From an uncultured Gammaproteobacteria bacterium (GTDB lineage Bacteria; Patescibacteriota; Microgenomatia; Levybacterales; UBA12049), in assembly GCA_964474445.1 (NCBI GenBank), contig CAYYSJ010000006.1:14213-78212 (forward strand): DNA of 64,000 nucleotides, in the 5' to 3' direction. The notes under the pieces are model-generated. The model searched no databases, was not told the origin of the DNA, and was given only the letters and a program-made list of their open reading frames with translations. A program made the translations under genes and the position numbers. Position 1 is the first letter of the stretch. Every line of letters begins with the position of its first letter. Of this stretch, positions 888 through 40,983 are shown one piece after another.

Positions 888-975
888 GGAGAGGTCGCAT
901 AGTTGGTCTAGTGCGCTCGCTTGGAAAGCGGGTATCGTCGTGAGATGATCACGGGTTCGAATCCCGTCCTCTCCG
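888..975 (+). tRNA. tRNA-Ser, anticodon GGA (type II tRNA with long variable arm)
   Basis: Manual fold: acceptor GGAGAGG/CCTCTCC, D-arm GCA..TGC, anticodon stem CTCGC/GCGGG with loop TTGGAAA, long variable arm, T-arm ACGGG-TTCGAAT-CCCGT, discriminator G; CCA not encoded. Confidence 0.85.
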
Positions 976-990
976 CTAAAATTCAAATAA

Positions 991-2241: not shown

Positions 2242-2336
2242 AGCTCCTCCTATTATGACAAAAAGGCAAAAGAAAGCAAATCCACACTGCTTTTTTGCTT
2301 GACAATCAAGGAAAAATTAACCAAACTAGACATAGC

Positions 2337-4022
2337 ATGAAATTTCTCCGTTTATTTCTTCCAAAAACAGTGTTGAAATATTCCCCTTCCATTATATTTG
2401 GATTGGTAATTCTTTTTTCAGTAATTATGCCAAGTTTTGCACAACGAGACTATACCATGCCCAGTACCGAGACAAACGTACCTCAAAACCTTCATACTTT
2501 GACACAAGGGTTACTCCTTGATCTTCTATCTGCAGCGACTTGCCAACTTGGTGGTGTGGACTTTATGACACCAAACCATAAATGTCTTGTTTATAACTCT
2601 CAAGGTCGACTAAGCTATGCAGATAACAGTTCAGGCGTGGTTGGTTTTCTCACCAATGCAATCCAAATCACCTATACGCCACCACTTCATACCTCCTATT
2701 ATGTGGCATATCTTAAAAATAATTTTGGTCTTGTGAAATCAGCTAATGCAGCAGGAAACAGCGGATTTGATCAACTGCAGCCCCTTACGAAGATTTGGTT
2801 AATATTCCGTAATCTCACATACCTTCTATATGTGATTATTTTTGTTGTTATTGGTTTTGCCATTATGCTTCGAGCGAAAATTGATCCCCGAACAGTTATG
2901 ACCATAGAAAATCAAATACCCAAACTCATTGTTAGCATTGTTCTGATCACTTTCTCCTTCGCTATAGCAGGCCTTCTAATTGATTTCCTTTGGGTGCTCA
3001 TGTATCTTGTCGTTAATGTTTTTGCCGCAGTAGACCCTAATTTACTGCCCGGAAATATTATTAGCGGCATAAGAGATAACCCAATTGGCGTCTATGGGAG
3101 AATTCAAGATGGATCCGTGTTTGGCCTCGCATGGCAAGTTGCAGGAGCATTAAATGACATGCTCAATGTAATCATAGGGAATGCTCTTAGTGCGCAGCTT
3201 GGATCAATACCAGTGGGCGGCCTTTTGTCAAAGATACTTGCCATCCTACCGCCATTTATTATTACTGCAACACTCCCGTGTGTTCCTTCAGCACTGCTAG
3301 GACTTATTCCTGGCTCTAACACTGATTTTGGGAAATGTATTGATGGGAATATGACTGCACAGCTCTCCTTTCTTGGAGCAATTGTTGCTTACCTTATTGT
3401 CCTTGTTGCTATGGTCGTTGCACTCTTTAAAATTTGGTTTACCCTTATTCAATCTTATGCAATGTTTCTCATTCTTGTTGCAACAGGACCGTTATTTATT
3501 TTGTCTGGAGTACTCCCTGGAAGTAAAGTGACATTTGAATGGTGGTTAAGACAACTCCTAGCCTACCTGTCATCCTTTATTGTTACCCTTGGTATTCTTC
3601 TTTTAGGAAAAGTTCTTATGGACGCTTTTGGCAACAGTACCAATGCGTTTGGCCCTCCTCTTATCGGAGGACAAATTGGACAAGTAGCAACAAGTACTCT
3701 TGGCGCAATTATTGGATTTGCAACATTTCTTCTTGTGCCACAAGCACTGACAATGGCCCGGGATGCAATCGGTGCAACACCTATTAAATATCTGCAGGGG
3801 ATTGGAGAAGGACTTGGTGCAGGAACGAAATTTGTTGGTGGAGTTGCTGGTGCAGGATTCAGGAGAGCATTCCACGACAGGAATCTCCAAACTGGGCAGG
3901 GAGAGGGATTTGGTACTCAATTATTGTTGGGACGAATTGACGAAGCGGGGACCTGGAGTGGCAAGTCATGGCAAGGATTTTTACGAAGAATGGCATATGG
4001 CAAGATGAAGGGAATGAAGTGA
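2337..4022 (+). CDS. Polytopic membrane protein, candidate VirB6/TrbL-like T4SS channel component
   Basis: N-terminal signal/TM (MKFLRLFLPKTVLKYSPSIIFGLVILFSVIMPSFAQ), many hydrophobic helices, Gly-rich C-terminus; sits in the T4SS-like cluster. ATG at 2337 preferred over the track's TTG at 2295. Confidence 0.45.
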   Translation: MKFLRLFLPKTVLKYSPSIIFGLVILFSVIMPSFAQRDYTMPSTETNVPQNLHTLTQGLLLDLLSAATCQLGGVDFMTPNHKCLVYNSQGRLSYADNSSGVVGFLTNAIQITYTPPLHTSYYVAYLKNNFGLVKSANAAGNSGFDQLQPLTKIWLIFRNLTYLLYVIIFVVIGFAIMLRAKIDPRTVMTIENQIPKLIVSIVLITFSFAIAGLLIDFLWVLMYLVVNVFAAVDPNLLPGNIISGIRDNPIGVYGRIQDGSVFGLAWQVAGALNDMLNVIIGNALSAQLGSIPVGGLLSKILAILPPFIITATLPCVPSALLGLIPGSNTDFGKCIDGNMTAQLSFLGAIVAYLIVLVAMVVALFKIWFTLIQSYAMFLILVATGPLFILSGVLPGSKVTFEWWLRQLLAYLSSFIVTLGILLLGKVLMDAFGNSTNAFGPPLIGGQIGQVATSTLGAIIGFATFLLVPQALTMARDAIGATPIKYLQGIGEGLGAGTKFVGGVAGAGFRRAFHDRNLQTGQGEGFGTQLLLGRIDEAGTWSGKSWQGFLRRMAYGKMKGMK

Positions 4023-4031
4023 TAGATACTT

Positions 4032-7000
4032 TTATCCTCCAACTTTCAAGCCGCTAAATATCATTTTGAAAAAGGTTCCAAATAACTCTCGAGTTATGTC
4101 TGCCGCAAATCCCACAGTATCTCCCCCATACTCTCCGGCGTAGAGTCTCCACCAAGGATTATTAAACCAGAGCAAGTATCTTCTTATTTTACCTGTATCT
4201 TCTAATAAGCCCAATTTGGCTATTCTGTCCCATTCGTCTATTGTAAAAAAGTCGCGCAAAATCTCAACTTCTTCCCCGTTAAAAGCAACCGATCGTGTCA
4301 TGCTATTAAATAATCCTTGCAGCATTTCTATTTCATTTGCACCGTAATATTTTGCAATCGCTCCTTTTGCACGCCATTGTCTATGAAATCGGATTTGTTC
4401 AGCAATAATATATGCTAAAAGGTTTCGTGCCATACCTGTTTTTTTCCAAGCCTCATCCTGTGTCTTTGAACCAGTATCTGTTTCTACTTCAAATCCATAC
4501 ATTTTCATGTCTTGCACTGTTTTCCCAAACATAAGATCACGCAAGGACTGTGTTGTCATCTTTACTGACCTGTCAACCTTACCTCGATAACCAGGCTGAG
4601 ATGTGTATGTCCAGGTTCGAAACTGTGCTTCAAAATTAGGAGCTTGCAAGTCAAGCATGTATCGAATCGGTTTCCAGAATTTATCAATGAAATCCCAAAA
4701 TGCCGAGGTATCAACGGTTAATAGACCGGTTCGCGGATCTGGTGAAACAATTTTATTAAACTCAATCTCAATTTTATTAAGCATCTTAAAGACAGCAAAA
4801 GCGTTACTTAAGTGATCTCCGTAAAATTGAGACATGGAATTCTCGTAGAAATCAAAAGAAGCAATATCTCCATCTAAATTCATATTGTCTCCTGCACCTC
4901 CCTGAAGGATCTCCCGAAGAGTAGTTCCTTTACCCATATTTCCATATCCACTTTCTCCCTGCTTTTGCACTCTCATGCCTTCATAAAAAGTAAAACTAAT
5001 TTTTTTAATGCCATTTATCGTAAAGACATTCCCGTATGCATTCTTGCCTTCCACTTGTCCCTCTCTATATCTCCTAATATTCATTAATTTGGACCAGGCG
5101 TTAAATCCAATACCAATGACGTCATTTTTTGCAGTACTGCCAAAAATATATGCCAAGTCATACGCATGCATATCAGCATACTTTGCCTCAAAAGCTGACA
5201 ACTTGAGCTGTTTGACCATGGCTGCTCGAAGAGCATCTCTCACTAATGCTCTTGATCCTCCAACCTCCTTGATAGAGCCAAATATATTAAGAAAAATCGC
5301 ATCATTTGAATCCCAGCTTTGTTTTGAGAAAGAAATTGCAAAGTCCTCCAACGACTTTCTCCCCTCTACAAAATCCTTAAATACCCCATTACTTACAAGC
5401 TCCGATGTCATGCCATATCCTTTTCCTACCATTGTATAAAGGAATTCTCTTCTCAAATCTTGAGAGTTCACTCGGGATTTTCTTTCGAGTGTTAGTGCGT
5501 TAAGTTCATTTAATTGTCTTTGAAAGGTCTCTTTCTTTCCAGAATCTGTTGATTGAGAAATATCCTTAGCAAGATCTTCTCGTATTCGAGCGAGGACACG
5601 TGTATAGTCTTCTTGAGAAATTCCCCATTCAACAAACTTTGAGGGTTCCTTTTGCTTTGGATCTCCTTCAAGACCTTTTTTATCTAACAGCAGAATATCC
5701 AACACATCCACTTTCTCCCAGTCTTGTCTTTCTCTAAATGCACCTTTATTTTCTCCCTCTTTCTCTTGGATAAATATTTTATTTAGTTCTTCTGTTAGTT
5801 TTTTTGCCATGCCAAATTGATCAGCGTATTTTTTGTCAAGTGTAATACGGATAACTTCACGGTAAAACTCTTTTGCCCCCTCAGTCCCAAGTGATTTTCT
5901 AAAAAGATTTTCGTACTCTTTTTCTTTTCCTTGCTCATCAACGCCTTTTATTCGAGCTCCCTGGTTAACCTCTGCCATATAGTCGTATGCATTTAACAAG
6001 CGCTGAACTGCTTTTCCAACGGTTCCCTGAGAAGTATAATCGTTATTCTCAACCTGCCTATCAATTTCTCCTTTCCCATTATGTGTTTGTTTATCAGTGC
6101 TTCCATAGCGAAGAATCTTTAGCAAACGATCACGTCCCTCAGTTAATGCATTTGGCTTACTATAAATACTTCCCAAGACTTCTGATAATTTGTCCTCGGA
6201 TCCCATTGCCGCCCGAAAGTCAACAGCAGAGTTGTGAATAAAGTCAGCAAGATAAGGCTCATAAAGGATATCGTCCCGAAGCCTGTCATATGCAGCATCT
6301 TGACGAGAAACCTCACGAACTTTGTAAACTTGAACGTCCTTAGGTTTAGAAGGATCATTAGGATCATATTCTTCTGAGACTTGAATATTAGGAGCAGGGA
6401 CCTCTGCGACAACCCTTAGCTCTCCTCTCTCGTTTTCACTTAAAAGCCCAACCAAGACACGTCCTGCACCATCTTTACGCACTTTACCATTCTCGTCTGT
6501 TAGGACAACACCTTCTCTGTTATACCTTTCCAAATCAACTCGCCAAACTCCATCTTCTTTTTTTACTTCCTGATAAATTTCCGTAGTTCGTTTACCCCAA
6601 TATGCATCAGTACCGTATAATTCAATTAAGTAATATGCACGAGTGGCAGTTGGAAGCTGAATATCCTGCAATAGGTTAATTTTGCTTGTTGCGTTTAAGT
6701 CATGATAAAACCATACTCTTCTTCTCACCCACAAAAGTAAGTTGTCTTTATTTACACGCTTCTCTCCAGTTTCAGAATCAATAGTAATAAGCGCATGTTT
6801 TCCACCAACGGAGAATTCATCAGACACCACATCGGAAATTCTTTCAACTAAATCTTCCAAATTTTTGGGAGTACTATAAAAATCCATCTGCTCATCTCGT
6901 AACTTTTCGTACCCGTAATACTTTTTCAGTGTATTCCCCAACTCTAAAGTCATGAGTCGAGCTGCGTTTTTGTCCTGTGCGGCAACTGTTGTTATCTGTT

Positions 7001-7490
7001 CAAGGCGTTTTTTCAGCTCTACCATCTCTTGTTTAAGACCAGGCGTTGTTTCTAATGCTCTTTTTGCTTTCCAACCCATACCAATAATACCCTCTATCAA
7101 GTTGGTAAACTGTACATCCGATTTTCCTGATTCACGCAATTCTTTCAATAAACTCTCGAGATGTTCTCGAGGGGTTTTAGGCTTTGTAGTTTCATCTTTA
7201 TCTATCTGTGACTGCGCCTCTTTTGCTTTTGCTTTCATGTTATCCCGAAAGTTAGCAGGAGCGGGCTCAATGGTCGATCGTACGTTTTCTCTATTGGACT
7301 CTGTCCCCATTTCTTCTAATACTTGGGCCACTTGTTCTGGAGTTAACCTTTGTCCATTATTAAAGAATCCGCCTTCCGAAATTGGCTGCCCTTGTGCTTC
7401 GGGAGAGGATCCTCCACCATCTATTGCCATACCTTCAGCATAGCTATTTTGAACTCTTGATGTCAATGTTGGGTCAAATTCGTAGTTCAT
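4032..7490 (-). CDS. Large hypothetical protein (about 1150 aa), no TM, no recognisable catalytic motif
   Basis: Long uninterrupted ORF; first ATG at 7490 (track TTG at 7499); no Walker motifs seen; lies between the VirB6-like gene and the pilin-like genes. Confidence 0.6.
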   Translation of the reverse strand: MNYEFDPTLTSRVQNSYAEGMAIDGGGSSPEAQGQPISEGGFFNNGQRLTPEQVAQVLEEMGTESNRENVRSTIEPAPANFRDNMKAKAKEAQSQIDKDETTKPKTPREHLESLLKELRESGKSDVQFTNLIEGIIGMGWKAKRALETTPGLKQEMVELKKRLEQITTVAAQDKNAARLMTLELGNTLKKYYGYEKLRDEQMDFYSTPKNLEDLVERISDVVSDEFSVGGKHALITIDSETGEKRVNKDNLLLWVRRRVWFYHDLNATSKINLLQDIQLPTATRAYYLIELYGTDAYWGKRTTEIYQEVKKEDGVWRVDLERYNREGVVLTDENGKVRKDGAGRVLVGLLSENERGELRVVAEVPAPNIQVSEEYDPNDPSKPKDVQVYKVREVSRQDAAYDRLRDDILYEPYLADFIHNSAVDFRAAMGSEDKLSEVLGSIYSKPNALTEGRDRLLKILRYGSTDKQTHNGKGEIDRQVENNDYTSQGTVGKAVQRLLNAYDYMAEVNQGARIKGVDEQGKEKEYENLFRKSLGTEGAKEFYREVIRITLDKKYADQFGMAKKLTEELNKIFIQEKEGENKGAFRERQDWEKVDVLDILLLDKKGLEGDPKQKEPSKFVEWGISQEDYTRVLARIREDLAKDISQSTDSGKKETFQRQLNELNALTLERKSRVNSQDLRREFLYTMVGKGYGMTSELVSNGVFKDFVEGRKSLEDFAISFSKQSWDSNDAIFLNIFGSIKEVGGSRALVRDALRAAMVKQLKLSAFEAKYADMHAYDLAYIFGSTAKNDVIGIGFNAWSKLMNIRRYREGQVEGKNAYGNVFTINGIKKISFTFYEGMRVQKQGESGYGNMGKGTTLREILQGGAGDNMNLDGDIASFDFYENSMSQFYGDHLSNAFAVFKMLNKIEIEFNKIVSPDPRTGLLTVDTSAFWDFIDKFWKPIRYMLDLQAPNFEAQFRTWTYTSQPGYRGKVDRSVKMTTQSLRDLMFGKTVQDMKMYGFEVETDTGSKTQDEAWKKTGMARNLLAYIIAEQIRFHRQWRAKGAIAKYYGANEIEMLQGLFNSMTRSVAFNGEEVEILRDFFTIDEWDRIAKLGLLEDTGKIRRYLLWFNNPWWRLYAGEYGGDTVGFAADITRELFGTFFKMIFSGLKVGG

Positions 7491-7558
7491 ATGAAGCAAG
7501 TTTACTTCCTAAAAGCACACTTGCCTTGATATTTACCTTACAGAATTCTTTTGATACG

Positions 7559-8902
7559 ATGATACATATGGATTCCGACCATCTTGAATCACTCTATCCA
7601 ACAGCAAGTAGACAAGAAGAAATCACTGAAATTCTTTCCTACGTAAAAGAAGGACAATCTTGTCAATTGATTGCTCTGCCAGGTGTTGGACGAGGAAACT
7701 TACTAAACCTTCTTGCATACAATAGAGATCTTCGAATACTCCATTTAGGAGAGGAGGTATACCTCAAATATCATTTTGTGTTGGCTAATTTTTCTGAGGT
7801 AAAGAATAGATCACTTCTAGACATTATGAAATTTCTTTTCCTCGAACTTTCTTCGTCCTTGCATGAGAGGAAAAGAGACGAGGAATTTTTAGAGGTTGAT
7901 CAAATGTTTAAAGAAGCAATATCTTATAACGATGAATTAGTGCTTTTTCAAGCACTCAAAAAAGCAATTGAGTACTTAACGCTTGAGAAAGATATAACAG
8001 TTGTTTTTCTTCTTGAAAGATTTGAAACGTATGTACCACTTGTTACACAGGATTTTTTTAACAATTTACGGAGTATCCGAAATCGTGCAAAATATAAATT
8101 CTCTGTTGTCTTCTCTGTCACAAGACCGTTAGAGGAAATTCTAGAGCCAGCTCTTCTTGCAGATTTCTACGAATTTGTCGTAGATCATAACATCTATTTG
8201 CCTCTTTTAGATATGCCTGGTATCAATTTCCGTATCAGTTATTTAGAAAAACTGACCAGAAAAAAAATACCAGAAGAAATTACAAAAAAAATTTTAGAAT
8301 TTACTGCTGGACATGGGAAATTAACAAGACTCACCTTGGAAATTGCATGCTCAGATCGTACTGAAGAGCGACAAGTAAACATAATAACACTACTTTCCCA
8401 CAAAACCATTCGAGGAGCTCTATTTGAAATTTGGAATTTTCTTACTCCCGATGAACAAAACGATGTCTTTTCACTAGTAAAAGGAGACTCTGTTTCAAAT
8501 GCTTTTCTAGAACATGTAGGACTTCTCCAAAACGGACATGTCACAATTCCTCTTTTTGCAGATTTCGTTAAGAATTATTTGTCCGAAGAAGTTGCACAAG
8601 AACAACATATCTTCTTTAACCCTGAGACAAATAGTATTACCAAAGGGCATCAGATCCTTTCCGACATTTTAACAGGATCAGAATTTAAACTACTTCGTTT
8701 ACTGCTTGAACATATAGACACAATTATTGACCGCGATCGAATTATCCAAACAGTGTGGACAGATACAAAATCTCAAACAGGAGTTTCGGATCAGGCAGTT
8801 GACCAACTCATATTCAGACTAAGAAAAAAAATTGAAGACGATCCGAATAATCCTGTACATATTCAGACAGTGAAAGGTCGCGGTGTTAAATTTACTCCAT
8901 AA
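7559..8902 (+). CDS. Transcriptional regulator: N-terminal NTPase-like domain plus C-terminal OmpR/PhoB-type winged-helix DNA-binding domain, no receiver domain
   Basis: C-terminus LLRLLLEHIDTIIDRDRIIQTVWTD...AVDQLIFRLRKKIEDDPNNPVHIQTVKGRGVKFTP matches the trans_reg_C pattern; N-terminal LIALPGVGRGNLLNLL is P-loop-like; first ATG at 7559 (track TTG 7382 would overlap the upstream gene). Confidence 0.6.
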   Translation: MIHMDSDHLESLYPTASRQEEITEILSYVKEGQSCQLIALPGVGRGNLLNLLAYNRDLRILHLGEEVYLKYHFVLANFSEVKNRSLLDIMKFLFLELSSSLHERKRDEEFLEVDQMFKEAISYNDELVLFQALKKAIEYLTLEKDITVVFLLERFETYVPLVTQDFFNNLRSIRNRAKYKFSVVFSVTRPLEEILEPALLADFYEFVVDHNIYLPLLDMPGINFRISYLEKLTRKKIPEEITKKILEFTAGHGKLTRLTLEIACSDRTEERQVNIITLLSHKTIRGALFEIWNFLTPDEQNDVFSLVKGDSVSNAFLEHVGLLQNGHVTIPLFADFVKNYLSEEVAQEQHIFFNPETNSITKGHQILSDILTGSEFKLLRLLLEHIDTIIDRDRIIQTVWTDTKSQTGVSDQAVDQLIFRLRKKIEDDPNNPVHIQTVKGRGVKFTP

Positions 8903-8945
8903 CTTTTCTTGACAAAGAAATGCTCACTGTGGGACGATAAACCTA

Positions 8946-9545
8946 ATGAAAAAGCTTTTCCTTTCCCTTGCCATGCTTCCTCTCTTTTTCGTACTTCCTC
9001 AACTGTCATTTGCCGGAGGATGCACTGATAATAGAAGCATCTGTGTAAATCAATCTCTTCCTTCAGGAGTCAAGCCAGGTGATGTTTGCGGAAACTCGAC
9101 GAATTATGTTTATGGTTCAACGTCAGTTTGCTTTGGCGGAGCTTCTCCATGTATTCCCCGTTGCGGACTTGGGGATTGGTGGTGCTGCGATCCAAAACCT
9201 GGATATACTCCGGTAAACAAGGGGCCAGCTGCTCCTCCATGCAACCAATCAGATAATGGTAATTGCCTTTCTGTTGAAACAGGTGTTGGAACGATATCCA
9301 CACAACCCGCAAACTTTGTTAATAGTATTTACAGGATTCTTTTGGGGCTTGCTGGCGGAGTAGCACTACTTCTTATTATTGGAGCTGGATATCAAATGAT
9401 GACATCGCAGGGAAACCCAGAGAAAGTCAAAGAAGCACGAGAACGTCTTACCTCTGCAATAGTCGGACTGCTTTTTATCATTTTTTCATTTACAATCTTG
9501 CAAATAATAGGAGTGCAAATTCTACAAATACCTGGCTTTAAATAA
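8946..9545 (+). CDS. VirB2/TrbC-like pilin-family protein with an N-terminal Cys-rich (10 Cys) extracellular extension
   Basis: Signal peptide MKKLFLSLAMLPLFFVLPQLSFA; Cys-rich segment; C-terminal core AGYQMMTSQGNPEKVKEARERLTSAIVGLLFIIFSF shared with the three downstream paralogues. Confidence 0.5.
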   Translation: MKKLFLSLAMLPLFFVLPQLSFAGGCTDNRSICVNQSLPSGVKPGDVCGNSTNYVYGSTSVCFGGASPCIPRCGLGDWWCCDPKPGYTPVNKGPAAPPCNQSDNGNCLSVETGVGTISTQPANFVNSIYRILLGLAGGVALLLIIGAGYQMMTSQGNPEKVKEARERLTSAIVGLLFIIFSFTILQIIGVQILQIPGFK

Positions 9546-9547
9546 TT

Positions 9548-9889
9548 ATGAAATTACTTGCATTGACAGTTGGTGGAGGTTCATCAGGAGAACCAACATT
9601 TACAATACAACCGCCCTCTGATCTTCTAGATGTTAGCAATCTTACATTAGATAGACTTATTCATAACGGTATTACTTTGCTTCTTTATGTAATTATTCTT
9701 CTTAGCTTTATTTTTGTTGTTATTGCTGGACTCAAATGGATACTTTCCCAAGGAGATAAGAAAGGGGTTGAAGAAGCGCGAAAAACATTAACATTTGCGA
9801 TAGGAGGACTCGTTCTCGCTTTTCTTTCATTCTTTATTATTAATCTTATTGGATATGCACTCGGTGGCATCCCCTTACTTGGCAGGTAG
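9548..9889 (+). CDS. VirB2/TrbC-like pilin-family small membrane protein (paralogue 2)
   Basis: Core GLKWILSQGDKKGVEEARKTLTFAIGGLVLAFLSFFII; two hydrophobic helices flanking a charged loop. Confidence 0.55.
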   Translation: MKLLALTVGGGSSGEPTFTIQPPSDLLDVSNLTLDRLIHNGITLLLYVIILLSFIFVVIAGLKWILSQGDKKGVEEARKTLTFAIGGLVLAFLSFFIINLIGYALGGIPLLGR

Positions 9890-9934
9890 ACACTTGACAA
9901 GGAGTAAAAATACCCATACGATAAAGATAATTCT

Positions 9935-10330
9935 ATGAAGCACTTAGCAACGTTTTTCCTTCCTTTTGTATCATTGGTCATTGTGCCACAAGCCTTTGCA
10001 GATGTTACTGTTAACACATGCCCCCCTGGAAACTTTAATGCGTTATGTTTAAATGCAACTGATTTAGGGAGAGTTATTGGGAATGGAATTAACTTTTTGT
10101 TTGTTGTTGCAGCACTTCTAGCATTTGGATTTCTTGTTCTAGGAGGAATTAAATGGCTTACTTCTCAAGGAGAAAAAGAAGGGATTAATAAAGCTCGAGA
10201 GACAATTGTTGCAGCAGTGGTGGGATTGATTATAATTTTTCTCTCCTACCTCATTGTTAACTTTATCCTTAATCTCTTTGTTGGAGTAAGTCTTTTCAAT
10301 CTTACTCTCCCAACTATTACCGGACATTAA
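9935..10330 (+). CDS. VirB2/TrbC-like pilin-family small membrane protein (paralogue 3)
   Basis: Signal peptide ...VPQAFA; core GIKWLTSQGEKEGINKARETIVAAVVGLIIIFLSYLIV. Confidence 0.55.
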   Translation: MKHLATFFLPFVSLVIVPQAFADVTVNTCPPGNFNALCLNATDLGRVIGNGINFLFVVAALLAFGFLVLGGIKWLTSQGEKEGINKARETIVAAVVGLIIIFLSYLIVNFILNLFVGVSLFNLTLPTITGH

Positions 10331-10351
10331 TCTTTGTAGCAACTAGCTCCA

Positions 10352-10690
10352 TTGCCTTTTTTTATACTCTTTGTTACGCTTTATCATATGTGGGGAACTT
10401 GTATAGTAAATGGCATTCCAACAATACAATGTATTTTCCCTCTCGTAAACATTATTATTAATGCAGCTCTTGGCCTTGTCGGCACTGTTGCAGTGCTCCT
10501 TATCCTTTATGCGTCTATCAAATACATTACTTCTGGAGGCGGAAAAAGCGCAGAAGAGGCAAAAAATATTCTTACCTATGCAATCGTTGGTCTTATTGTT
10601 GTTTTGGGTTCATTTTTTATTGTCAGGCTTATCGCTGGATTCACAGGTGTAGAATGCATCAATACATTTAGTTTCTTCAGTTGTCAATGA
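10352..10690 (+). CDS. VirB2/TrbC-like pilin-family small membrane protein (paralogue 4); start uncertain (TTG 10352 or ATG 10388)
   Basis: Core IKYITSGGGKSAEEAKNILTYAIVGLIVVLGSFFIV. Confidence 0.5.
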   Translation: MPFFILFVTLYHMWGTCIVNGIPTIQCIFPLVNIIINAALGLVGTVAVLLILYASIKYITSGGGKSAEEAKNILTYAIVGLIVVLGSFFIVRLIAGFTGVECINTFSFFSCQ

Positions 10691-11358
10691 CTACGATGAA
10701 GTCTCAATAAACCCTTCGTCATTCCTAACGTTAGGATATCAATAAAGATAGCAATCCCCAAATACCAGATCATTGACGAAAAAAGCAAATTCACAGAAGG
10801 AATTCCAACCCACCCTTGAATATAATTCCAAACATTCACTTTTAAAAAATACAAAAAAACAACAAGGACTATACAAATTGCTAAAAGACCTAAGGCTCCT
10901 TCCATGTCCTTTTTGCTCGAAAACATGGTATTACTTATTTCAAAAACGGCATACAGCAAGAGAAGTGTTTGCCCTGAGATAAGCTTGAGGTGTGGAAGAA
11001 AAAACCAAAAAAGAAGAAACAACATCGAAAGGCCAACAAGAAGTGGAGCAACACCAATAAGAAAACGCCTGAATGGATCTGTAGAGGCAATTGCAACACT
11101 GCCCATTTTCACCTCAGTACCTCGTATTTCAGGTAAAAATTCTATTTCTCCTGTAGGGACAAAAAGAATGCTTGCCGTCAAAAAATGAGAAAGCTCATGA
11201 ACGATAACCCCTGGTAAAAAAAGAATAGATAATAGCTGGATTACAATAGTCTGGTGTTTAAACATGTGGTAGAGCCATACAGACAAAAATTTTGTAAGCT
11301 GTTGGGAAAGAAGAAAAAGCACCACAAGCTCAACAAGAAAAATCCCTAGTATATACAT
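10684..11358 (-). CDS. Polytopic membrane protein with an intramembrane HExxH motif, putative zinc metallopeptidase
   Basis: VIVHELSHFLTASILFV lies within a hydrophobic helix; six or more predicted TM segments; convergent with the pilin array. Confidence 0.5.
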   Translation of the reverse strand: MYILGIFLVELVVLFLLSQQLTKFLSVWLYHMFKHQTIVIQLLSILFLPGVIVHELSHFLTASILFVPTGEIEFLPEIRGTEVKMGSVAIASTDPFRRFLIGVAPLLVGLSMLFLLFWFFLPHLKLISGQTLLLLYAVFEISNTMFSSKKDMEGALGLLAICIVLVVFLYFLKVNVWNYIQGWVGIPSVNLLFSSMIWYLGIAIFIDILTLGMTKGLLRLHRSH

Positions 11359-11483
11359 ACTCTTAGTATACTACCAACATTATTTAAGAAGGTAGGTTTC
11401 TGTTTTCACAAGATTTTTATGCCTAAGGCTGATCTATTTTGTAGGGGTTGCAATGAGATTTTTCACATAGTACGCTTTTGTAT

Positions 11484-12629
11484 ATGGATAATCACCCAAT
11501 CCCCCAAGATGTTACAAACTTCCAATTTCGTCTTATCGGAGATATGACAATAAAGCAGTTTGCTTACCTTGCTGCAGGTGTTGGTTCTGCTTGGATTCTC
11601 TTTGTTCTGCCTCTATCTTTTTTTATAAAATTTCCGCTCGTTGCTTTTTTAGGAGGGGGAGGTATTTTTTTGGCGTTTGTGCCTATTGAGGGGAGACCAG
11701 CAGATGCTATGATGTTATTCTTTTTAAAATCTCTTTTCTCCCCTACTCAATATATTTATCGACAATCTGGTGGTTCTTTTCCAACAACACCTGCTCCTCA
11801 GGACGAGAAGACTACGGTAAAACAGGAAGAGACAAAAGAGGAGAAAAAAGATGAGAAGGATGGAAAAATTCATTTAGAAGCATCGCCTACTCCTCTTGCA
11901 CAAACTGTGCTGCAACCATCACCGGTTGTTGAAGAAAAGAAAGAAGCTATAGAACAACCAGTAGCGACACCTCTTTCTGATGTTTCAACAGAAGAGACAT
12001 CGGCACAAGAGCTTGGGAAAGAAGCTGCAGAACTGGTAAAAGAACTTCAGGACGCAAAGAAGGAAGAGATACAAGCACAAGAAGGATCAAAAGAAGCAAC
12101 TGTTGCTCATGAAAAAGTGGCACAACTTGAAGATGAACTACAAACAATTCTTAAACAAAAACAAGAATTAGAAAAACAGCTTCTTGAACTAGAGAAGCAA
12201 CTAGCAGAAAAGAAACAACAGGTATTTACACCAAGCGCAGCACAAGATCAACCACAACAGACATCTCACGTTATTAAAGTCGCACCCAACCAACAAGCAT
12301 CAGTTGGTACGCCACTCACCAACGATGTCCCTAATCTGATCTCAGGTGTTGTAAAAGATCCTCGGGGGAATGTTTTGCCAAATATTCTTATCGAAGTAAA
12401 AGACAAGGATGGCAACCCCGTCCGTGCATTTAAGACAAATGGACTTGGTCAATTTGCTTCAGCAACCCCTGTTATCAGTGGCGTATATACCATTACCTTT
12501 GAAGACCCACAAGGCAAGCATCGCTTCGATGCTGTTGAGATAACTGCAAACGGGACAGTACTCCCACAACTGGAAGTTATCTCTGTTGACCAACGAGAAG
12601 AACTTCGACGTGAGTTATTTGGAGGATAA
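11484..12629 (+). CDS. PrgI/VirB3-like T4SS membrane protein with a long coiled-coil and a C-terminal beta-sandwich-like extension
   Basis: N-terminal FQFRLIGDMTIKQFAYLAAGVGSAWILFVLPL...GRPADAMMLFFLKSL resembles a PrgI-family TM hairpin; then an E/K/Q-rich coiled coil; C-terminus GVVKDPRGNVLPNILIEVKDKDGNPVRAFKTNGLGQFA. ATG at 11484. Confidence 0.5.
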   Translation: MDNHPIPQDVTNFQFRLIGDMTIKQFAYLAAGVGSAWILFVLPLSFFIKFPLVAFLGGGGIFLAFVPIEGRPADAMMLFFLKSLFSPTQYIYRQSGGSFPTTPAPQDEKTTVKQEETKEEKKDEKDGKIHLEASPTPLAQTVLQPSPVVEEKKEAIEQPVATPLSDVSTEETSAQELGKEAAELVKELQDAKKEEIQAQEGSKEATVAHEKVAQLEDELQTILKQKQELEKQLLELEKQLAEKKQQVFTPSAAQDQPQQTSHVIKVAPNQQASVGTPLTNDVPNLISGVVKDPRGNVLPNILIEVKDKDGNPVRAFKTNGLGQFASATPVISGVYTITFEDPQGKHRFDAVEITANGTVLPQLEVISVDQREELRRELFGG

Positions 12630-12631
12630 TC

Positions 12632-13288
12632 ATGAAACAACCTGCCCGACAAGCATCCACGCAACATTTTACAGAAGTCTTGGATATACACGATGAGATC
12701 GTTCTTCTCTCTGGAGGGAATGCGTGTATCATTGTGGAGGTTCAAGCTGTTAATTTTGCATTATTATCTGCTGAAGAACAGGATGCAAAAGTTTTTGGGT
12801 ACGCAGCACTACTTAATTCTCTTTCTTTCCCTGTTCAGATACTTATGAGAAGTAAAAAAATTGATATTATGCCATATATCAATTCACTTGCTGATGCGGC
12901 AACAAAAACAACGAATCCGAAACTTGCTGAGAATATTAATAAATATAAAGAATTTGTGAAACAATTGGTAACAACTGCAGTTGTTCTCGATAAAAAGTTC
13001 TATATGGTTCTCTCCTATTCTATGCTTGAGGAAGGAGTTGGAAGTATTACCAAGATTGCAAAAAACACTCCTTCTGATATGGATGATTTTTTTGTGAAAG
13101 CAAAGGCAGCCTTGCATACGAAAGCAGAGTCGCTCCTCTCTCAAATAGATAGAATGGCTCTTCGTGCAAAGATAGTAGAAAAAGATGCTCTTATTAACTT
13201 ATTTCACGATATGTTTAATGAGGAAGGAAGCCGTGCAAAGATACATGAAAGCCATGCTGTAACGGCAACCAAAGGAGGTGTTCACTAA
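12632..13288 (+). CDS. Hypothetical protein translationally coupled to VirB4; resembles a VirB4 N-terminal domain
   Basis: RBS GGAGGA then ATG; stop overlaps the VirB4 start (TAATG); segment ILLSGGNACIIVEVQAVNFALLSAEEQDAKVFGYAALLNSLSFPVQILMRS. Confidence 0.4.
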   Translation: MKQPARQASTQHFTEVLDIHDEIVLLSGGNACIIVEVQAVNFALLSAEEQDAKVFGYAALLNSLSFPVQILMRSKKIDIMPYINSLADAATKTTNPKLAENINKYKEFVKQLVTTAVVLDKKFYMVLSYSMLEEGVGSITKIAKNTPSDMDDFFVKAKAALHTKAESLLSQIDRMALRAKIVEKDALINLFHDMFNEEGSRAKIHESHAVTATKGGVH

Positions 13289-15114
13289 TGTTTGGGAAGA
13301 AAAACCCTTCTGCTCAACAAGTAGAGCAACCTCAACAAAATCTGTTAGAGAAAGGCATGCAGTCAATCCCTGATATTATTGCACCCTCATCTGTTGAGGT
13401 AGATTTTAAGTCAATCCGTGTTGGGGAACGATTTTATCGGACCTTTTTTATTGTTGGCTATCCTCGTTATGTATCAACAGGGTGGCTTTCCCCTGTCATT
13501 GATTTTGACCACTCTCTTGACATTAGCATGTTTATTTACCCAGTCTTTACTGATGACGTCTTATCTAATTTGAAGAGGAAAATTGCCGAAATGGAGGCAA
13601 CAATTTCTTCCGATGAAGAGAAGGGCAAGCCAGTAAATCCAAAAATTAACGCAGCGCTGAATGATGCATATGGACTCCAAAACGAATTAGCAAAAGGCAT
13701 TGAACGTTTTTTCCAATTTAGTCTCTATGTCGCTCTCTCTTCGGATGACAAAAAGGATTTAGAGGAAACGACAAAAAAACTTACCAGTACTCTCGCTTCG
13801 CTTTTAGTAACACCGAAGATAGCAACGCTTCAGATGGAAGACGGGTTTAAGACAATACTCCCTATTGGGCAAGATAGACTTTTCATCACGAGAAATATGG
13901 ATACATCCTCACTTGCTTCAACATTCCCCTTTACCTCCGCAACCCTAACACAAGATAAAGGGATTCTTTACGGAGTTAATCAACAAAACGGATCCTTAGT
14001 CGTTTTTGACAGATATTCTTTAGAAAACGCTAACAGTGTTATTTTTGGAAAATCAGGTTCAGGAAAATCATTCATGATTAAGCTTGAAATTATGCGCCAA
14101 TTCATGTTTGGGACAGAGGTTATTGTTATTGATCCTGAAAACGAATACGGAAAATTAGCACAAACGTTGGGAGGGGAATATCTGAACTTTTCAGCAATCT
14201 CTCCTATAAAGATAAACCCTTTTGATTTGGCAGGCGTCTATGAAGAAGGAGAGAACGAACTTGGAACAAAAATTATTTCACTTCGAGCGCTATTGAAAAT
14301 AATGCTTGGCAACATCACCCCAGCGGAGGATGCAATCTTAGATAGAGCCCTGGTAGCAACTTACTCTGAAAAGGGCATTACAGCAGATCCTGCAACGCAA
14401 TCTAAAACTCCACCTATTTTGGAGGATTTATACAAAGTACTCAAAACGATGCAAGATCAGATAGCTCAAGGACTAGCACTTCGTTTGGAGAAATATGTTA
14501 CCGGGAGTCTTGCAGGACTTTTCAACCAACAATCAAATTTTGACATTAAAAATCCACTCACAGTCTTTGCTTTAAGAGATCTAGAGGATGAAGTACGACC
14601 AATTGCCATGCATATTATCCTAGACTTTGTCTGGACACGTGTTCGAAAGACTTTGAAGAAGCGTCTTCTTATCGTGGATGAAGCATGGTATTTAATGAAA
14701 CATGAAGATTCCGCATCATTTATTTACGGCATTGCTAAACGCGCTCGTAAATACTATCTAGGACTCACTACCGCGACCCAGGACGTGCAGGATTTCCTTT
14801 CGAGTGATTATGGTCATGCTATCCTTTCGAACTCCTCTGTTCAAATTCTACTCAAGCAGAGTACTTCAGAAATAGAAACAGTTGCGACCACTTTTTATCT
14901 TTCAGAGGGTGAAAGGCAAATGCTTATTTCAGCTGGTGTTGGCCAAGGACTTTTTTTTGCTGGACAAAGTCATGTTGCCATACAAGTTGTTGCAGCACCA
15001 TTTGAGCATGAGATCATCACATCAAATCCTGCAGAACTACAAAGGCAACAAGAACAAACTTCTAATCAAACACAACCGGTTACAACTCCGCCTAATGCAA
15101 GAGGCATTCAATAA
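13288..15114 (+). CDS. VirB4/TrbE/TraC-family T4SS ATPase, Gram-positive (PrgJ/TrsE) type
   Basis: Walker A GKSGSGKSFMIK, Walker B RLLIVDEAWYLM, DPENEYGKLA, ATTFYLSEGE; RBS AAAGGAGGTG upstream. Confidence 0.85.
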   Translation: MFGKKNPSAQQVEQPQQNLLEKGMQSIPDIIAPSSVEVDFKSIRVGERFYRTFFIVGYPRYVSTGWLSPVIDFDHSLDISMFIYPVFTDDVLSNLKRKIAEMEATISSDEEKGKPVNPKINAALNDAYGLQNELAKGIERFFQFSLYVALSSDDKKDLEETTKKLTSTLASLLVTPKIATLQMEDGFKTILPIGQDRLFITRNMDTSSLASTFPFTSATLTQDKGILYGVNQQNGSLVVFDRYSLENANSVIFGKSGSGKSFMIKLEIMRQFMFGTEVIVIDPENEYGKLAQTLGGEYLNFSAISPIKINPFDLAGVYEEGENELGTKIISLRALLKIMLGNITPAEDAILDRALVATYSEKGITADPATQSKTPPILEDLYKVLKTMQDQIAQGLALRLEKYVTGSLAGLFNQQSNFDIKNPLTVFALRDLEDEVRPIAMHIILDFVWTRVRKTLKKRLLIVDEAWYLMKHEDSASFIYGIAKRARKYYLGLTTATQDVQDFLSSDYGHAILSNSSVQILLKQSTSEIETVATTFYLSEGERQMLISAGVGQGLFFAGQSHVAIQVVAAPFEHEIITSNPAELQRQQEQTSNQTQPVTTPPNARGIQ

Positions 15115-15131
15115 CGATATACTAATTGTAT

Positions 15132-16946
15132 ATGACTACCAACGTGGGGGAAGAAACTGCCTTTGCAAGATTTAGAAGGTTTTTGCTGGAAAAGGAAGGA
15201 GAAAAGAACGAACTTGAAACTGCTATCCAAACGGCAAATACAGAAGATCTTGGGAAAATCGCATACAATAAGGCGCATCAGTATTCTCAGCAAGGCTTAA
15301 TAGATCCTAAAACACTTGATGCCATTCAACAAACTGCTCCAGTAATTAATCCCGAACCTTTTGAACAACCCATCCCAACAATCCCTCCTGAAAAAGGACG
15401 TTCTGCTGACAATTCTTCTGACAAAAAACGCCATAGGAGTGAAAAAGCTCTTTCAAAAACTCCTGGTATACACACCCTTATTATAAATCAGCAAAAGGAA
15501 GAGCTTTTAAAAAAATTCGATGAACTAGCAGCAAATCCTGATAATAAAGACCGACTCCTTGATGAGCTACTCGATAGGTTTGAGGCAAAAGCACTATTTG
15601 ATGACTATCATACAAAATTTATATCGTCAATTCAACAACTCCCTTCTTTCCAGAACCTTACGCACCAACAACAAGCTGACTTGCTAGAGAGACTTACCAA
15701 ACAACAGGAAGAGCTAAGAAAAAGAGATCCACTTGAAAAAGAAGCGGGAGAGATAAGAGCAATAAAAGAAGCAAAAAGAGGTGCTCTAAAGTCTAAGATC
15801 GAAGAGTTATTAGAAACTCAAGACAGAAAAAGAGCGCAAGAAACTTTTTCGTCTCTTGTTTCAACACGTCAAACTGTTCAAGGAGAACTCGTGAAAGAGA
15901 TATTTCAGCCATCTCAACCTATATGGAAATCACAAGATTTTTCTTTTGTTTTCGAACAGCTTTACAATCCCCCTCCTCGGTTCGTCATAGTTGCTACAGT
16001 AGCACAATCACCCATTACACACTCTCTTCAGGAGAGCTACGAGGACGTTGAAAGACCTCTCTCTACACCATCTGATAGTGTTCCAAGACAAGTAAGACAA
16101 CAAGGCAAACAACCATTATTCCCACAGACAAGGGAGTTTGTGAAAAACTTAGGCAAAAATCTAGGGAAAAAACTACGTAATAAGGCAGCAGCAGAGGTCG
16201 GAAAAGGACTTGTAGAAAAAGGTTTCTTACGATGGGCCTTTACTGCACCACCTTATTTAGGAGAGATAGTTCTTGGACTTATGGCTCTCTTTGCTCTTGT
16301 TATGTTCGTAATTATATTCTCCTCGAAAAAATTGAATTCGCCATCTAATAATCAAGATGTTGCCAATATCACCCTTGTTGCGACAACAATTCAACTATGC
16401 GAAAAGACACCACTAGGGTTTTGGCTTCCTCCCGCTCCAGTTTGTGCGCTCACTATTCTTGGTCTTAATATTCTTAGCCCTGGAGATCTATTAAACTTTG
16501 CGAGAGCAATTATTGCTGCATACCCTGATTTTCAATGCGGACAATTCATTTGGGCCGCGGAACGGTATATTTTGCATTGGCCTGTCTTCCCAGGAAATGT
16601 AAATAGCGTGTTCGAGTGGTATCTCATTGATCGTGCAACACATAGTTTGCCTGGGTACACCTGGATTAGTAATCCAGACCTTGCTTCTCATCGACCTGAT
16701 CCGGCAAATATTGCTGCTGGTGATATTATTTTATATGGAAGCACTGGCCATACTGATCCTGGACACATTGCAATCGTGATTGATTTACCAAAGGATAAGA
16801 ATGGGAATGTTGACCACTTCAATATTACCGTTTCTGAGGCGAATTATCATCATGGGGCAATAGACATCCGCCCGACAAATTTATTTGATGACCTTGGAAG
16901 AGGAGCAAATATACTAGGCTGGTGGAGACGAATCGCAACACAATAA
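15132..16946 (+). CDS. Membrane-anchored cell-wall hydrolase with a C-terminal CHAP (Cys/His amidohydrolase/peptidase) domain; VirB1-functional analogue
   Basis: TM helix YLGEIVLGLMALFALVMFVIIF; CHAP signature FQCGQFIWAAERY ... GDIILYGSTGHTDPGHIAIVIDL; ATG at 15132. Confidence 0.65.
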   Translation: MTTNVGEETAFARFRRFLLEKEGEKNELETAIQTANTEDLGKIAYNKAHQYSQQGLIDPKTLDAIQQTAPVINPEPFEQPIPTIPPEKGRSADNSSDKKRHRSEKALSKTPGIHTLIINQQKEELLKKFDELAANPDNKDRLLDELLDRFEAKALFDDYHTKFISSIQQLPSFQNLTHQQQADLLERLTKQQEELRKRDPLEKEAGEIRAIKEAKRGALKSKIEELLETQDRKRAQETFSSLVSTRQTVQGELVKEIFQPSQPIWKSQDFSFVFEQLYNPPPRFVIVATVAQSPITHSLQESYEDVERPLSTPSDSVPRQVRQQGKQPLFPQTREFVKNLGKNLGKKLRNKAAAEVGKGLVEKGFLRWAFTAPPYLGEIVLGLMALFALVMFVIIFSSKKLNSPSNNQDVANITLVATTIQLCEKTPLGFWLPPAPVCALTILGLNILSPGDLLNFARAIIAAYPDFQCGQFIWAAERYILHWPVFPGNVNSVFEWYLIDRATHSLPGYTWISNPDLASHRPDPANIAAGDIILYGSTGHTDPGHIAIVIDLPKDKNGNVDHFNITVSEANYHHGAIDIRPTNLFDDLGRGANILGWWRRIATQ

Positions 16947-16948
16947 CT

Positions 16949-17686
16949 ATGGATAAGAAACTTTTTATTATTGCTGGAGGAAGTACACTTCTTTTATTTT
17001 GTTTCTTTCTCCTTGTTTTCTTTCTCGCCAGTATAAAAGAAAAAAATGTTCATCCTCCGATTGAATCCCCAACCCCGACACCTGTAAAAAGTAGTCAATT
17101 TTTGCTTAATGGACCAAGCAGTACACAGCAAAGACCAGTCAAACTGTTATATTTTTCACCAGCAGATGGGGCACGAAATGTTTCCTCTCAACAAGAAATT
17201 GTTATCACATTTGATCAACCTGTCGCAACAGAAAGTGTCTCTTTTTCGATCTTTCCAGAATTGGATGTCCGTATTTCTTCTCGTCTAAACTCAATTATCA
17301 TTATACCAAATACCCCTTACCAGCCTAATATTATCTATACATACAGTCTATTCACCCCAGATAATACAAAAATAATTTCTGCTTCTTTCTCCTCAGGAAA
17401 TTCTCAAACTCCAATAAACCCATTAAAGGGGGATTATAAAAATACAGATTCACTCGGAGACAGTGCTCAACGAGAGAATTATCCTGATGTTTATTTAGCA
17501 AGCTTTACTCCGTATGATGGCACGAGTTTCTTTGTAAACAATGAGTTTGAGTCATCACCAAGCGGTCACTATATATTTGTGATGACGCAGAAATTACAGA
17601 CTGGAAAGAGTGATTTTTTTGATTGGTTGAAAAAGCTTGGTTTGACACAAAGTCAAATAGATCGCATTACTGTAACATATCAATAA
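16949..17686 (+). CDS. Hypothetical secreted/membrane-anchored protein
   Basis: N-terminal TM MDKKLFIIAGGSTLLLFCFFLLVFFLASI; S/T/P-rich; last gene of the cluster before dnaN. Confidence 0.45.
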   Translation: MDKKLFIIAGGSTLLLFCFFLLVFFLASIKEKNVHPPIESPTPTPVKSSQFLLNGPSSTQQRPVKLLYFSPADGARNVSSQQEIVITFDQPVATESVSFSIFPELDVRISSRLNSIIIIPNTPYQPNIIYTYSLFTPDNTKIISASFSSGNSQTPINPLKGDYKNTDSLGDSAQRENYPDVYLASFTPYDGTSFFVNNEFESSPSGHYIFVMTQKLQTGKSDFFDWLKKLGLTQSQIDRITVTYQ

Positions 17687-18794: not shown

Positions 18795-18866
18795 ATATAT
18801 ATTTTTGTAGTTGTAGTAGTGTATCTGGAAATGTGGAAAAAAGCAAGAAGATAGCTTCAAAAATCC

Positions 18867-18945
18867 TGTGGATAACGTGTTGAAAACTTTTGGGATAACA
18901 TGTTGAAAAGATATTTTTTCTCAACTTTCCCTCTTATTATCCACG
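18867..18945. promoter_or_regulatory. DnaA boxes in the dnaA-dnaN intergenic region
   Basis: TGTGGATAA at 18867-18875 and TTATCCACG at 18937-18945. Confidence 0.5.
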
Positions 18946-20308: not shown

Positions 20309-20382
20309 TGTGGATAACTTTTTGTCAAGAGGAATAAAGGTGATTGTTTCAAGAGCTGCACCAGAAAGCCAAATGTGGACAA
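20309..20382. promoter_or_regulatory. DnaA boxes / candidate oriC segment between divergent dnaA and rpmH
   Basis: TGTGGATAA at 20309-20317 (perfect reverse-complement of TTATCCACA) and TGTGGACAA at 20374-20382. Confidence 0.5.
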
Positions 20383-20413: not shown

Positions 20414-20551
20414 ATGAAAAAAGGTCCAGCAATTGCAAAAAAAACAAAAGGTCAAAGAAAACATGGATTTTTAGCTCGAATGGATTCTCATGGAGGACGA
20501 AAAGTTCTTAAGAGAAGACGAGCCGAAGGAAGAGAATCCTTAACAAAATAG
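20414..20551 (+). CDS. rpmH: 50S ribosomal protein L34
   Basis: MKKGPAIAKKTKGQRKHGFLARMDSHGGRKVLKRRRAEGRESLTK; 45 aa, below the ORF-track cutoff; canonical position upstream of rnpA. Confidence 0.85.
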   Translation: MKKGPAIAKKTKGQRKHGFLARMDSHGGRKVLKRRRAEGRESLTK

Positions 20552-40958: not shown

Positions 40959-40983
40959 CCTCATCAACTGTATAAACATTTCT

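Follow-up and report, generated by a model that had tools for sequence, protein, structure and literature searches.

Introduction

A survey of Patescibacteria genomes published in 2025 by Quinonero-Coronel and colleagues detected VirB4, the ATPase of type IV secretion systems (T4SSs), in 2,417 of 3,035 genomes, and found that these proteins form a monophyletic clade nested in MPF_FATA, with TrsD and PrgI homologues encoded adjacent to them (PMC12102498). In the same survey, VirB2 genes were found in arrays of 2-11 members, especially in Microgenomatia and Saccharimonadia, relaxases were almost absent, T4SS genes often lay near dnaA, dnaN, rnpA and rpmH, homologues of the type IV coupling protein (T4CP) were distant from virB4 in most Patescibacteria, and transfer of VirB4 between classes proved rare; tandem VirB2 paralogues are also known from Bartonella and Anaplasma (PMC12102498). 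Here, we describe a T4SS-like gene cluster that occupies positions 2295-17686 of a 64-kb stretch of contig CAYYSJ010000006.1 (the whole of which we call the window), between a tRNA-Ser gene and dnaN-dnaA-rpmH. This cluster probably represents a T4SS of the Patescibacteria clade within the monoderm MPF_FATA class, carried by a Levybacteria- or Microgenomatia-like genome and working via the pilus or channel mechanism proposed below.

The experimental model for such a locus comes from the Saccharibacteria. Using transposon sequencing, Wang and colleagues showed in 2023 that SEML1_0006-0019 are essential for the epibiotic growth of Southlakia epibionticum, and noted the presence of pilins without coupling and relaxase proteins (PMC10633639). 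The genes in this organism run from dnaA, dnaN, recF and a hypothetical gene through an Ig-like exported protein, a lysozyme/Cys-peptidase, a large peptidase, VirB4, a 294-amino-acid (aa) protein and PrgI to two VirB6-like genes placed around a non-essential NTF2-like gene, six pilins, Hsp20, one open reading frame (ORF) and the tRNA-Ser gene SEML1_0022 (PMC10633639). A 2025 FEMS review counts the Patescibacteria T4SSs among the 'most exciting newcomers' of the superfamily and speculates about a pilus conduit (PMC12857230), while a 2026 preprint reports tubular structures at a parasite-host interface that were read as possible T4SS pili (bioRxiv 10.64898/2026.06.21.733656). The class is important: almost every member of a phylum that accounts for a sizeable part of bacterial diversity has it, the parasitic lifestyle depends on it in the only species tested, and no other monoderm T4SS has VirB2-type pilins. 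A first-pass annotation of the window, made from its sequence, had put the cluster forward as an undescribed system, a suggestion that we withdraw, as the Patescibacteria T4SS was already known (PMC10633639, PMC12102498, review PMC12857230).

Results

The core genes of a probable T4SS with VirB2-like pilins

We listed ORFs in all six frames and searched every ORF of at least 100 aa in the window with Pfam and NCBIfam profiles. The profile searches bore out the T4SS-like cluster of the first-pass annotation, with its VirB4, PrgI, VirB6-like protein and pilins, and left its coordinates and gene calls standing almost to the base (Table 1). The VirB4 ATPase covers positions 178-734 of the 752 positions of the NF045971 model (E 1.7e-122 for CD1110), and its best match in the PDB is the Thermoanaerobacter VirB4 (4ag5, E 5e-50). 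It has more than 8000 relatives, the closest of which are 65-91% identical and, where named, mostly come from Patescibacteria or Levybacteria; one Eisenbacteria label among the top matches is a mis-assignment. Several metagenome-assembled genome records that contain the locus (L001, L003, L006, L034 and L072 of our synteny set, and others) carry the titles 'uncultured Gammaproteobacteria', 'Pseudomonadales', 'Nevskiaceae' or 'Eisenbacteria', and such taxonomic labels are probably mis-assigned.

Directly before virB4, and overlapping its start codon with its own stop codon, lies a TrsD-like ORF for which a weak PF26593 (TraC-like) match is recorded on an identical contig, and for which a PDB search returned no match. 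Judging from these sub-threshold matches, VirB4 would be split, with its detached N-domain supplied by the TrsD-like ORF. In the PrgI/VirB3-like protein, a membrane hairpin is joined through a long, charged, coiled linker to a CarboxypepD_reg beta-sandwich, a full-length layout that is kept in many loci. The VirB6-like protein has about 8 hydrophobic segments, and ORFs of 568-575 aa hold the equivalent slot in L090 and L092.

In the putative wall hydrolase, about 370 aa of cytoplasmic coiled coil are followed by two transmembrane (TM) segments and an extracellular CHAP-like domain. The CHAP domain assigned to it by the first-pass annotation scores below the curated threshold; it shares 54% identity over 232 aa with a syntenic L090 protein that has a strong CHAP match, and both Cys471 (in 'QCGQ') and His547 (in 'PGHIA') are kept between the two. 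The protein may take part in T4SS assembly in a VirB1-like role. Across 51 loci, the slot between virB4 and dnaN ranges in size from 0 to 6.5 kb (e.g., L001:11859-13772 and L007:12104-15541), and its largest ORF carries an M23 domain in 6 genomes, SLT_3 in 6, CHAP in 5, SLT in 4 and Amidase_3 in 1. The variety of hydrolase domains resembles the swapping of domains in a protein with a VirB1-like role, and fits an adaptation to the organism's own wall or to that of the host. The last gene before dnaN encodes a membrane-anchored Ig-like (Big_5) protein that holds the equivalent slot in L003, L004 and L090, and whose positional counterpart in Southlakia is the Ig-like exported protein SEML1_0005.

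The pilin array consists of four VirB2/TrbC-like paralogues that are 32-45% identical to one another, as had been proposed, though the second falls short of the PF18895 cut-off that the other three exceed. In pilin 1, the C-terminal VirB2-like hairpin is preceded by a signal peptide and by a head rich in Cys (10 Cys in about 95 aa). Its positional homologues are 414-624 aa long and carry the pilin domain at their very C-terminal end. The first array gene invariably terminates in a VirB2-like hairpin, and the head ahead of it is variable (L040:376-1773, L017:5518-6762, L011:4773-6647), comprising about 95 Cys-rich residues in the window versus 300-550 unannotated residues elsewhere. With such a head, pilin 1 is a plausible specialised or tip subunit. 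Some loci carry an extra pair of unannotated genes, of about 1000 and 450 aa, between the pilins and prgI (L040:3400-7749, L007:2974-7536, L092:639-5168); this pair has no sequence kinship with the 1155-aa family or the regulator described below.

Table 1. Genes of the T4SS-like cluster and its flanks, in window coordinates.
Feature	Position	Strand	Evidence and remarks
tRNA-Ser(GGA)	888..976	+	ARAGORN; conserved left landmark of the locus
416-aa charged protein	991..2241	-	Between tRNA-Ser and the VirB6-like gene; no Pfam/NCBIfam match
VirB6/TrbL-like polytopic membrane protein	2295..4022 (probable start 2337)	+	PF04610, E 5.9e-7, 29.9 bits vs cut-off 25.9
1155-aa soluble protein	4032..7499	-	No TM segment, no signal peptide, no Cys; N-terminal motif MNYEFDPTLTSRVQNSYAEGMA in disordered tail
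NTPase-like/OmpR winged helix-turn-helix (wHTH) regulator, ~445 aa	7559..8902 (ORF from 7382; likely start 7559-7568)	+	PF00486, E 1.6e-18
Pilin 1	8946..9545	+	PF18895, 40.3 bits vs cut-off 26.6; PF04956 TrbC, E 1.7e-4
Pilin 2	9548-9889	+	PF18895, 24.3 bits, under cut-off 26.6
Pilin 3	9935-10330	+	PF18895, 34.6 bits
Pilin 4	10352-10690	+	PF18895, 34.7 bits
224-aa membrane protein, 5-6 helices, invariant HExxH	10684..11358	-	Between pilin array and prgI
PrgI/VirB3-like	11478/11484..12629	+	PF12666, 34.4 bits vs 27; C-terminal CarboxypepD_reg PF13620, 35.1 vs 32.3
TrsD-like 218-aa protein	12632..13288	+	NCBIfam VirB4_plasma positions 128-284 (E 2e-7) and TrsD end to end (E 1.7e-3), both far under cut-offs
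VirB4 ATPase, MPF_FATA/CD1110 type, N-domain absent	13288..15114	+	NF045971, 410 bits vs 325; PF19044, 110 bits
CHAP-type wall hydrolase, 606 aa, putative VirB1-like role	15126/15132..16946	+	CHAP PF05257, 22 bits, under cut-off 26
Membrane-anchored Ig-like (Big_5) protein	16922..17686	+	PF13205, 32 bits vs 23.6; N-terminal TM segment; last gene before dnaN
dnaN	17688-18860	-	Pfam; begins 2 bp past the final cluster gene
dnaA	18937-20289	-	Pfam
rpmH, L34-like ORF	~20414-20551	+	Recognised by eye

A conserved chromosomal position

To compare the cluster with its relatives we obtained a synteny set of 80 loci by scanning one genome per GTDB species, and located the neighbouring genes with tblastn. 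TrsD lies directly upstream of virB4 in 72 of the 80 loci and PrgI is present in 66. Downstream, 67 loci have dnaN and 64 have dnaA; about 38 contain the four-pilin array. The flank examined reached 10 kb upstream of virB4, and the low counts of VirB6 and of the 1155-aa protein are partly technical for this reason. The whole gene order is kept in the metagenomic loci L090/L091, which run in sequence through NUDIX, tRNA-Ser, the VirB6-like gene, a homologue of the 1155-aa protein, the regulator, four pilins, a 225-aa membrane protein, PrgI, a TrsD-like protein, VirB4, CHAP and Big_5. Since synteny with dnaN and dnaA is conserved across 64-67 of the 80 genomes, the cluster has been inherited vertically at a fixed site, and is not an integrative and conjugative element (ICE).

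The search for mobility genes covered the window together with 4.4 kb upstream of it, which we obtained from a contig with an identical NUDIX gene. No relaxase, VirD4/TraG coupling protein or integrase family was matched among the window ORFs of at least 100 aa, and the 4.4 kb upstream (UDG and three unannotated ORFs) likewise contained no mobility domain. The first-pass annotation, which had seen none of the three in the window and had taken the apparatus to be chromosomally fixed, is thus upheld on both counts, the second also by the synteny. Its statement that there is no coupling protein holds for the window and the 4.4 kb beside it, but a T4CP elsewhere in the genome is to be expected from the published survey (PMC12102498). 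GC content is flat across the cluster, with no anomaly, and the 3' end of the tRNA-Ser gene has no second copy (att-like repeat) within the window.

Both of the flanks named in the first-pass annotation were found, except that the tRNA gene does not abut the cluster directly, being separated from it by a charged 416-aa ORF. The same tRNA-Ser adjoins the VirB6-like gene in L090, making it a conserved landmark and not an integration scar. The 416-aa ORF is missing from the syntenic stretch of L090 (L090:15143-15392), where tRNA-Ser lies directly between the VirB6-like gene and NUDIX; it is probably a lineage-specific insertion and unlikely to belong to the T4SS. Relative to NUDIX, the tRNA-Ser of L090 is on the opposite strand from that of the window, a small lineage-specific rearrangement or insertion at the tRNA.

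On the other flank, dnaA and the L34-like ORF are followed by rnpA, yidD and yidC (Pfam). DnaA boxes are clustered at 18832-19021 (n = 6) and 20309-20382 (n = 2), out of 37 in the window versus 19 expected. A further cluster of five DnaA-box-like sites (one exact) is located at 40983-41624, 21 kb from dnaA; the AT-rich intergenic region that holds it spans 890 bp, with ruvB on one side and a gene for a GAF histidine kinase on the other. The cumulative GC skew has its minimum near 33 kb, away from dnaA. Because of this second cluster and the position of the skew minimum, the dnaA block is a candidate oriC only. A scan for promoters and terminators remained at background (43 promoter-like sites versus 43.3 expected). 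The remaining genes of the window are housekeeping genes, and include polysaccharide genes, PGK, FBPase, GDH, LeuRS, RuvABC, PurA/B, DnaG, RpoD and small stress proteins.

A family of large soluble proteins with an N-terminal motif

The gene between virB6 and the regulator encodes an 1155-aa protein that the first-pass annotation had called an orphan, a description that did not survive: the family has 141 cluster representatives, nearly all of 850-1650 aa. These emerged from a full HMMER scan, which was required, as a word-indexed homologue search returned the query alone. Conservation is concentrated in residues 730-1100 and 160-310, which contain near-invariant polar residues. The AlphaFold2 model is confident (pLDDT 79, pTM 0.80), with the first ~50 residues disordered, and the protein matched no PDB fold and no domain.

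An N-terminal motif of the approximate form [ED]LT x3-22 (F)M[PAE] is present in 96 of 123 family members versus about 3.5% of controls. When run over all ORFs of the 80 loci and the window, a hidden Markov model (HMM) of this motif recovered large T4SS-linked proteins alone, one of them without other detectable similarity to the 1155-aa family. Large proteins bearing the motif are also encoded at L017:960-4073(-), L010:194-3229(-), L001:594-3968(-) and L003:202-3777(-). Three further family members whose context we checked all lie beside an ORF of 568-608 aa in the VirB6 position, and the regulator and pilins follow in the two of these contigs that reach far enough. As for the other ~1000-aa proteins encoded at such loci, kinship with the 1155-aa protein was considered and set aside after jackhmmer and hhalign found no link; those of L040 and L007 are a separate extra module.

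We take this family as the best lead, and a lead only, to a substrate or recruiting factor. It is on this protein that the strongest alternative to a general pilus or channel hinges, namely a dedicated effector translocator that would export cytoplasmic proteins into the host, with the 1155-aa family as its substrate, or as a platform replacing the coupling protein, recognised via the N-terminal ELT...(F)M motif. The protein lacks a Sec signal, its sequence diverges quickly (22-31% identity between close genomes), and its gene is found inside the cluster in every case; the motif, enriched as described above and specific at the HMM level to large T4SS-linked proteins, sits in a disordered tail; and effector delivery is the speculation favoured in the literature (PMC11665869, PMC10633639). 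Known T4SS signals, however, are C-terminal and T4CP-dependent, and no T4CP is in view; the well-folded, conserved core with its near-invariant polar residues would suit a housekeeping enzyme or a scaffold equally; and the protein offers no fold or domain clue and has no identified counterpart in the Southlakia cluster. On balance we regard a dedicated effector translocator as unlikely.

A putative regulator and a HExxH membrane protein

The gene preceding the pilin array encodes a protein with a C-terminal winged helix: PF00486 matches residues 430-503 of the 506-aa ORF, equivalent to about 371-444 of the protein started at 7559, and on an identical contig the gene is called at 444 aa. PDB matches are limited to the wHTH. 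The N-terminal ~340 aa of the family contain a Walker A-like motif, GLPG[VAST]G[KR][SN]N, and a Walker B-like motif, hhhhLFDRF[DE], although the P-loop of the window protein is degenerate (GVGRGN). Of the 80 loci, 21 contain the regulator, which adjoins the pilin array in 18-21. A two-component response regulator was considered and rejected, as the winged helix is accompanied by no receiver domain; the protein resembles more closely an ATP-binding one-component regulator, as far as its motifs suggest.

With respect to the pilin array, the regulator gene lies inverted in the two closest relatives, L001:4073-5419(-) and L002:1-1170(-) (75% and 67% aa identity), while its orientation in L003, L005 and L017 is that of the window. 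The idea of an invertible switch was dropped when a search for flanking inverted repeats gave chance-level pairs alone. A paralogue, 23% identical, is encoded at 33239-34561 (+) beside the glutamate dehydrogenase gene, far from the T4SS genes.

The 224-aa membrane protein with its invariant HExxH belongs to an unnamed Patescibacteria family of about 220 aa with 837 homologues, which in some genomes occupies the slot separating the pilins from prgI. From its weak resemblance, it is a candidate minimal metalloprotease like the site-2 proteases (S2P). Like the 1155-aa family and the NTPase-wHTH regulator, it is a lead, not a finding.

The three families can be joined in a more specific picture, a substrate-selection module proper to the Levybacteria-type version of this T4SS, in which the large (850-2000 aa), signal-less and fast-evolving family with its ELT...(F)M peptide would replace the coupling protein. 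Either VirB6 or the split VirB4/TrsD would recognise this peptide, which lies in a disordered tail, and the large protein would be delivered to the host or gate delivery, with the S2P-like protease maturing the pilins and the NTPase-wHTH protein switching the pilin operon. We hold this elaboration to be doubtful.

Discussion

Taken together, these data make a T4SS of the Patescibacteria clade, operating through a pilus or channel, the likely identity of the cluster. We propose a VirB-type pilus mechanism because the pilins, VirB3, VirB4, VirB6 and the wall hydrolase are the parts needed to build a pilus. In Agrobacterium, VirB4 acts as a pilin dislocase, and the pilus is assembled without the need for VirD4. 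By this mechanism, the CHAP hydrolase, anchored by its two TM segments, would open the wall locally, and the split VirB4, docked on PrgI and VirB6, would extract Sec-inserted pilins from the membrane and polymerise them into a VirB2-type tubular pilus, in which the Cys-rich first pilin may act as a specialised head subunit. The resulting pilus or channel would form a bridge between epibiont and host cell, through which cargo other than conjugative DNA would pass in a contact-dependent manner. The NTPase-like/OmpR-wHTH protein probably controls the pilin operon. Through the conduit, proteins might move out or host macromolecules might move in.

Several points weigh against this interpretation. 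No VirB8-like protein was found in the cluster, and the TrsD, CHAP and second-pilin assignments all fall under curated thresholds in the window copy. The placement of VirB4 in the Patescibacteria clade draws on its nearest neighbours rather than on a tree, and is to that extent provisional. For the class as a whole, a 2024 review described the role of the T4SS in Patescibacteria as 'completely unknown' (PMC11665869), and the pilus is linked to T4SS genes in Patescibacteria by inference. Finally, a T4CP may be encoded at another genomic site, as is the case in most Patescibacteria, which would make transfer of a cytoplasmic substrate possible again.

A machine working in the opposite direction to an effector translocator has also been proposed in reviews (PMC11665869, PMC12857230). 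It would take up host nucleic acids or other macromolecules via the channel or pilus, as do Helicobacter ComB and Sulfolobales Ced, and so feed an organism unable to make nucleotides. Import needs neither relaxase nor T4CP, and ComB and Ced, like the cluster described here, are chromosomal and independent of both; a cultivated parasite with putative T4SS pili has, moreover, been found to acquire host RNA (bioRxiv 10.64898/2026.06.21.733656). VirB4 does match CedB, but weakly and far under its similarity to conjugative VirB4 (NF041017, E 7e-18 versus 1.7e-122 for CD1110), CedA, CedA1 and CedA2 were not recognised, and the profile searches recognised no DNA- or RNA-binding or nuclease component in the cluster. 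The dispensability of the competence pathway in Southlakia, where the T4SS is essential, neither proves nor excludes import. We consider an import machine improbable, more so than effector export.

A decayed or cryptic ICE at tRNA-Ser, its relaxase, coupling protein and integrase lying outside the window or recently lost, could be entertained given the nearby tRNA gene, the conjugative family of VirB4 and the ~19 kb of the 83-kb source contig and the rest of the genome that lie beyond the analysed DNA, but we reject it as highly implausible, since gene order and position beside dnaN/dnaA recur in 64-67 of the 80 species-level genomes as well as in Southlakia, a member of a different class, the tRNA-Ser neighbour is conserved, there is no att repeat or GC shift, mobility genes are absent over 68 kb, and VirB4 transfer between classes is rare (PMC12102498).

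Comparison with known systems

A pilus- or channel-forming Patescibacteria T4SS, as we read the cluster, shares features with several described systems. With the Agrobacterium VirB system (MPF_T) it has in common VirB2-type pilins, an inner-membrane platform of VirB3, VirB4 and VirB6, and a putative VirB1-type hydrolase; unlike that system, it serves a monoderm envelope, has a VirB4 of another class, and yielded no detectable VirB5, VirB7-VirB11 or VirD4. The likeness to the conjugative MPF_FATA systems (CTn2 CD1110, pCF10 Prg and pGO1 Trs) extends to the CD1110-type VirB4, PrgI, TrsD-like and VirB6-like proteins and putative CHAP-type hydrolase, and to the lack of an outer-membrane core. In contrast to these systems, however, the cluster is without relaxase, T4CP, oriT or PrgB-type adhesin, occupies a fixed chromosomal position instead of being mobile, and has the VirB2-like pilins that monoderm conjugative systems lack.

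Closer still are the loci of the Patescibacteria survey (PMC12102498), which share with the window an MPF_FATA-related VirB4, an adjacent TrsD, a PrgI-type VirB3, VirB2 arrays, the lack of a relaxase, and proximity to dnaA, dnaN, rnpA and rpmH. In that survey the Microgenomatia had few VirB6 homologues, and only 22.6% of their VirB3 homologues lay near virB4, whereas the window has both, with PrgI beside TrsD-VirB4 in the 66 loci counted above. The regulator, the 1155-aa family and the HExxH protein go unmentioned in those portions of the survey's text and supplementary material that were accessible, and we found no published description of them in the literature to the extent that it was available. 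These three accessory families are conserved, are unnamed in published surveys and could be candidate substrates, maturation factors or switches.

Southlakia ML1 (SEML1_0004-0019) resembles the window in its dnaA-dnaN flank, Ig-like protein, Cys-peptidase hydrolase, VirB4, TrsD-like protein, PrgI, VirB6-like protein, pilin array and tRNA-Ser, and neither cluster contains a relaxase or a recognisable coupling protein. The two organisms belong to different classes, Saccharimonadia in the case of Southlakia and Microgenomatia-like in the case of the window. Where the window has four pilins and a single short VirB6, Southlakia encodes six pilins together with two long VirB6-like proteins, of 999 and 1089 aa, that carry ARM-like cytoplasmic domains; it also has recF, a second large peptidase of 1114 aa and an NTF2/VirB8-like protein that is not essential. 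The window further contains the regulator, the 1155-aa family and the HExxH protein, for which no counterpart was seen in the Southlakia cluster. Essentiality is known for Southlakia only. Rather than a new kind of system, the window thus presents a clean and complete example of the Microgenomatia type, built on the same frame as the experimental Saccharibacteria model.

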